A DNA stretch of 64,000 nt from assembly GCF_003334315.1 (NCBI RefSeq), contig NZ_QOWR01000020.1; one strand, 5' to 3'. The notes under the pieces are model-generated. The model was given only the letters and a program-made list of their open reading frames with translations. It did not search any database and was not told the origin of the DNA. Below are positions 63,931 through 64,000 of the stretch, piece after piece. This stretch comes from Escherichia coli (GTDB lineage: Bacteria; Pseudomonadota; Gammaproteobacteria; Enterobacterales; Enterobacteriaceae). A program made the translations under genes and the position numbers. Every line of letters starts with the position of its first letter. The stretch's first letter is position 1.

Positions 63931-63995
63931 TCAGAAAATTATTTTAAATTTCCTCTTGTCAGGCCGGAATAACTCCCTATAATGCGCCACCACTG
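63931..63995 (+). promoter_or_regulatory. rrnB P1 ribosomal RNA promoter (UP element, -35, -10, discriminator)
   Basis: AGAAAATTATTTTAAATTTCCT (A/T-rich UP element), TTGTCA (-35, 63956-63961), 16-bp spacer, TATAAT (-10, 63978-63983), GC-rich discriminator GCGCCACC; window ends just past the expected start site. Confidence 0.8.
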
Positions 63996-64000
63996 ACACG

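Follow-up and report, generated by a model that had tools for sequence, protein, structure and literature searches.

Does the 64,000-nucleotide stretch of Escherichia coli DNA analysed here (the window) end in the promoter of a ribosomal RNA operon and, if so, of which one? An earlier note on this DNA had described, in its last 70 nt, an UP element, TTGTCA, a 16-bp spacer, TATAAT and a G+C-rich discriminator, and had read them together as the rrnB P1 promoter with an rRNA operon just past the edge. Each of these elements is indeed present at the place given for it. On sequence grounds, the end of the window is almost certainly P1 of the rrnB rRNA operon of an E. coli strain other than K-12.

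Promoter elements and Fis sites

All elements described in this section lie on the plus strand. We number them with +1 at 63992, following the published start of rrnB P1, which is ATP-initiated and lies 9 nt 3' of the -10 hexamer (PMC7822876). The UP element, an A+T-rich site for the C-terminal domains of RNA polymerase's alpha subunit, is CAGAAAATTATTTTAAATTTC at 63932-63952 (-60 to -40); its extent and function, like the extent and role of the discriminator, are taken from the literature (PMC7822876). It is the same as in K-12 rrnB P1, and its A+T content is 86%, compared with 48% over the whole window (G+C content 52%). The -35 hexamer TTGTCA (63956-63961) agrees with the consensus at 5/6 positions and the -10 hexamer TATAAT (63978-63983) at 6/6; the spacer between them, GGCCGGAATAACTCCC (63962-63977), is 16 bp long, 1 bp under the 17-bp optimum. 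The discriminator, GCGCCACC at 63984-63991 (-8 to -1), is G or C at 7/8 positions and carries a C at -7 (63985). Haugen et al. 2006 is said to identify a C at -7 as a non-optimal contact for sigma region 1.2.

Placed from the published promoter, transcription would start at the A at 63992, 9 nt past the -10 hexamer and the same base as in K-12. Counted from this predicted +1, the rrnB leader is represented by 9 nt, ACTGACACG (63992-64000), which also match K-12; the window edge at 64000 corresponds to +9 and truncates the rrnB primary transcript at that point. The operon had earlier been said to start past the edge: this is right for the 16S gene, which lies beyond the window, but the predicted transcription start lies inside it.

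Immediately 5' of the promoter is murI, encoding glutamate racemase, whose coding sequence occupies 63053-63910 according both to the open reading frame list and to the RefSeq annotation of genomes 100% identical there. Its TGA stop codon (63908-63910) corresponds to -84 to -82, and a search between the gene and the promoter gave no terminator-like sites. The final ~70 nt of murI also serve as the upstream activating region of rrnB P1. The other end of the gene overlaps btuB (61225-63108 in the annotation of identical genomes) by 56 nt in a different frame (63053-63108); btuB is 1884 nt long according to PGAP and 1845 nt in the K-12 record.

The published rrnB P1 Fis sites I, II and III are centred at -71, -102 and -143 (PMC2885671). 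We scored 15-mers against a degenerate Fis consensus with 11 specified positions, a score of at least 10 being reached at 0.19% of window positions. Candidate sites are found at all three centres. Predicted site III, GAACAATTATTGCCC, lies at 63842-63856 (centre -143, or 63849) and scores 11/11; predicted site II, GCTCGAAAAACTGGC, at 63883-63897 (centre -102, or 63890) scores 10/11, as does predicted site I, GGTTGAATGTTGCGC, at 63914-63928 (centre -71, or 63921). All three 15-mers have G-N13-C ends and are identical to those of K-12. Fis sites had been expected within the 3' end of murI, and sites II and III do lie there; site I is instead past the murI stop, in the 21-nt gap between it and the UP element.

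Assignment to rrnB

In a region rich in A+T, a sigma-70-like match might arise by chance in an intergenic patch and have no function. A simple consensus scan of 62000-64000 does find promoter-like sites at about the chance rate (three, with 2.7 expected), but the P1 site is the sole 11/12 match among them, the two others reaching 9/12. An exact search for TTGTCA-N16-TATAAT gives one occurrence in the 64 kb, against 0 in 100 shuffles that preserve dinucleotides. Furthermore, positions -84 to -1 do not vary among the 9 lineages compared, which comprise the window, MG1655 and a diverse set of seven strains, and the site matches, base for base, a promoter that has been dissected experimentally, rrnB P1. 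A chance origin thus has a negligible probability, and it is this last identity that rules it out.

The question of which operon is involved was addressed by aligning the window to the regions 5' of all seven MG1655 16S genes, counting identities over -41 to +9, over the UP element (-60 to -40) and over -150 to -61. For rrnB these are 50/50, 21/21 and 88/90, respectively. The first two values are equally perfect for rrnA and rrnC, at 50/50 and 21/21 each, but over -150 to -61 these operons match at only 27/90 and 35/90 positions. Values for the remaining operons, in the same order of columns, are 48/50, 12/21 and 39/90 for rrnG, 37/50, 10/21 and 34/90 for rrnH, 35/50, 9/21 and 24/90 for rrnE, and 28/50, 12/21 and 29/90 for rrnD. 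The P1 promoters of these last four have CCCTATAATGCGCC and a G+C-rich discriminator in common with the window, but their UP elements share just 9-12 of 21 positions with it; those of rrnH, rrnE and rrnD also differ in their -35 and spacer sequences and have the discriminator GCGCCTCC.

The K-12 P1 promoters of rrnA, rrnB and rrnC are in fact 100% identical from -68 to +9 (63924-64000), encompassing UP element, core promoter and start. Assignment to an operon from the last 70 nt alone consequently fails, and the label 'rrnB' rests instead on the murI context. The name given in the earlier note is upheld by way of that flank, although the 70 nt to which it was attached are common to rrnA and rrnC. 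Could the window then end at the P1 of one of those two operons? In keeping with the shared stretch, the promoter matches a median of four places per genome, a number explained by rrnA and rrnC having -68 to +9 in common with the window. Upstream of -68, however, both are unrelated to it, their neighbours being hemG and yieP, respectively, rather than murI, as reflected in the low identities over -150 to -61. In the window the sequence 5' of -68 belongs to murI, with btuB, trmA and fabR before it; this is the rrnB context in 5,426/5,426 genomes. An origin in rrnA or rrnC, refuted by the murI context, is accordingly very improbable. The divergence upstream of -68, with other neighbours, also means that the Fis site arrangements of rrnA and rrnC are their own. 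As a side observation, 4 of the ~21,700 promoter-matching places are in records classed as plasmid; these may represent plasmids that carry rrn operons, promoter fragments that were cloned, or artefacts of assembly.

With rrnB P1 as the preferred reading, the window can be compared with its K-12 MG1655 counterpart, which lies 5' of rrsB (b3968) and 3' of murI (b3967). The two are identical from -84 to +9, as the earlier identification of rrnB P1 would lead one to expect, and share UP element, -35, spacer, -10, discriminator, +1, the three Fis 15-mers and the murI-rrn context. In -150 to +9 they differ twice, at -113 (63879; G in the window, A in K-12) and at -85 (63907; T in the window, C in K-12), both positions being within murI and outside the Fis cores. 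Over the last 1 kb there are eight substitutions relative to MG1655, all in murI and none in 63911-64000, and these differences rule out K-12 as the source strain. The same 1 kb occurs, invariably under a murI annotation, in 5,426/5,426 complete E. coli genomes with identities of 95-100%, and several strains, ZF34 among them, match the last 25 kb with 100% identity. The leader between P1 and P2 also sets the lineage of the window apart from K-12: between K-12 and strain H1, which matches the window exactly over the final 1 kb, the first 300 nt 3' of +1 contain 11 differences.

Judged by its sequence, the promoter is one already known and belongs to a class that has been characterised in full: the locus is the same, and over the functional region every base is identical. 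Few bacterial promoters have been studied as thoroughly as rrnB P1, so nothing new follows from its presence here. Its use is as an annotation anchor, placing the window in the region from hslVU to oxyR, btuB and murI and ending it at the start of rrnB.

The operon past the window edge

We inspected the sequence 3' of the promoter in 16 genomes: H1, MG1655, ZF34, six more with 100% matches and seven from further down the identity ranking, together spanning 97.2-100% identity to the last 500 nt of the window. The distance from the murI stop to the start of a 16S gene is 370-374 nt in 16/16. The rRNA operon earlier proposed to lie just past the edge is therefore found in these relatives, none of which has a downstream sequence lacking one, and it can be followed in full in ZF34.

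The ZF34 sequence overlaps the window by 1,092 nt with 0 mismatches and the strain is 100% identical over the last 25 kb. The window itself ends at +9; in ZF34 the promoter is followed by P2 (TTGACT-N16-TATTAT) at +83 to +110, boxA at +148 (TGCTCTTTAACAA) and, at +292, the 5' end of 16S, equivalent to window position 64283. The annotation then runs 16S, tRNA-Glu, 23S, 5S, murB and birA. Independently of annotation, Rfam detects the small and large subunit rRNAs (1577 and 2876 bits), 5S rRNA (90 bits) and a tRNA, which ARAGORN identifies as tRNA-Glu(UUC). Rfam also reports StyR-44 (125 bits) in the 16S-23S spacer of ZF34 rrnB, just 5' of 23S (L009 3155-3263). By extension from the identical genomes, the sequence past the window edge would comprise a leader with P2 and boxA, with mature 16S beginning ~283-284 nt beyond base 64000.

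The body of the source operon might nevertheless be of a type other than that in K-12, for example with a spacer containing tRNA-Ile and tRNA-Ala acquired through rrn exchange. Among eight strains that match the window with 100% identity over its final 1 kb, such a spacer is present in three (H1, S43 and UMNK88) and a tRNA-Glu spacer in five, but ZF34, the sole inspected genome with 100% identity over 25 kb, has tRNA-Glu. We consider the exchanged body possible but unlikely. Since the type of spacer tRNA leaves the promoter unaffected, it would in any case be a variant of the rrnB P1 reading and not a contradiction of it. The differences in spacer tRNA behind the same murI-P1 junction presumably reflect exchange between rrn operons. 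The Ile and Ala spacers are located at 9894-10088, 5488-5682 and 5493-5687 of strain loci L001, L013 and L014, respectively; the 16S-23S spacer of K-12, like that of ZF34, contains tRNA-Glu.

Expected behaviour, variation among strains and surrounding features

Protein binding, start site and regulation at the P1 of the window may be proposed from published work (PMC7822876, PMC4696680, PMC2885671). Sigma-70 RNA polymerase would bind the near-consensus -35 and -10 hexamers, and two alpha subunit C-terminal domains on the UP element (-60 to -40) would increase transcription by a factor of more than 30. Fis dimers at -71, -102 and -143 would be expected to give a further increase in rapid growth: Fis bound 5' of the UP element activates P1 through contact with the alpha C-terminal domain (PMC4696680), and published tests of Fis binding to rrnB P1 used site I, the promoter-proximal one. 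A short-lived open complex would follow from the combination of a 16-bp spacer, a discriminator of 8 nt rich in G+C and a start placed 9 nt past the -10 hexamer. Output should then track the level of ATP, the initiating nucleotide, and ppGpp with DksA should shut P1 down, in line with the growth-rate and stringent control exerted via iNTP, ppGpp and DksA (PMC7822876; PMC4696680). The transcript would run from 63992 out of the window through a leader of ~291-292 nt (P2 at ~+83, boxA at ~+148) into 16S, the spacer tRNA, 23S and 5S. In fast growth P1 is dominant, with P2 providing basal expression, and H-NS and Lrp also act on rrn promoters (PMC4696680).

Variation among strains bears on whether the upstream region is constrained. 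Among the 9 lineages there are no variable sites in -84 to -1, as against 33 in the 858 nt of murI. Fis sites II and III are unvaried in the lineages compared, and none of the 45 Fis-core positions varies, where ~1.7 variable sites would be expected at the murI rate. With so few sites expected the comparison is underpowered, and the invariance is consistent with constraint but not significant. It is conceivable, though we think it improbable, that the last ~70 nt of murI are under extra purifying selection on account of Fis sites II and III and that, in addition, rare promoter variants alter regulation. A potential example of the latter is strain SEC470, in which the +1 of rrnB P1 is G rather than A (L017 942, equivalent to window position 63992), either a real variant or a sequencing error. 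If real, the change would make GTP rather than ATP the initiating nucleotide. The leader to 16S also varies in length among strains, from 288 to 292 nt, with 16S starting at +289 to +293 (L016-L022), and strain 4621 (L022) has no exact match to the boxA 13-mer.

Regarding the rest of the window, an Rfam scan over its whole length finds no rRNA or other RNA genes within 2.8 kb of the promoter. The RNA element nearest to it is the cobalamin riboswitch 5' of btuB (60970-61159, plus strand; 87 bits), and the small RNA OxyS, adjoining oxyR, is found at 55871-55980 on the minus strand (139.5 bits). This region of E. coli is expected to carry both. Other matches at gathering scores are naRNA4 (CssrE) at 1059-1136 on the minus strand, two instances of ES036 (CssrF) at 6141-6182 (minus) and 25572-25613 (plus), the ClpQY (hslVU) promoter element at 19871-19928 (minus) and the L31 ribosomal protein leader at 24540-24592 (plus).
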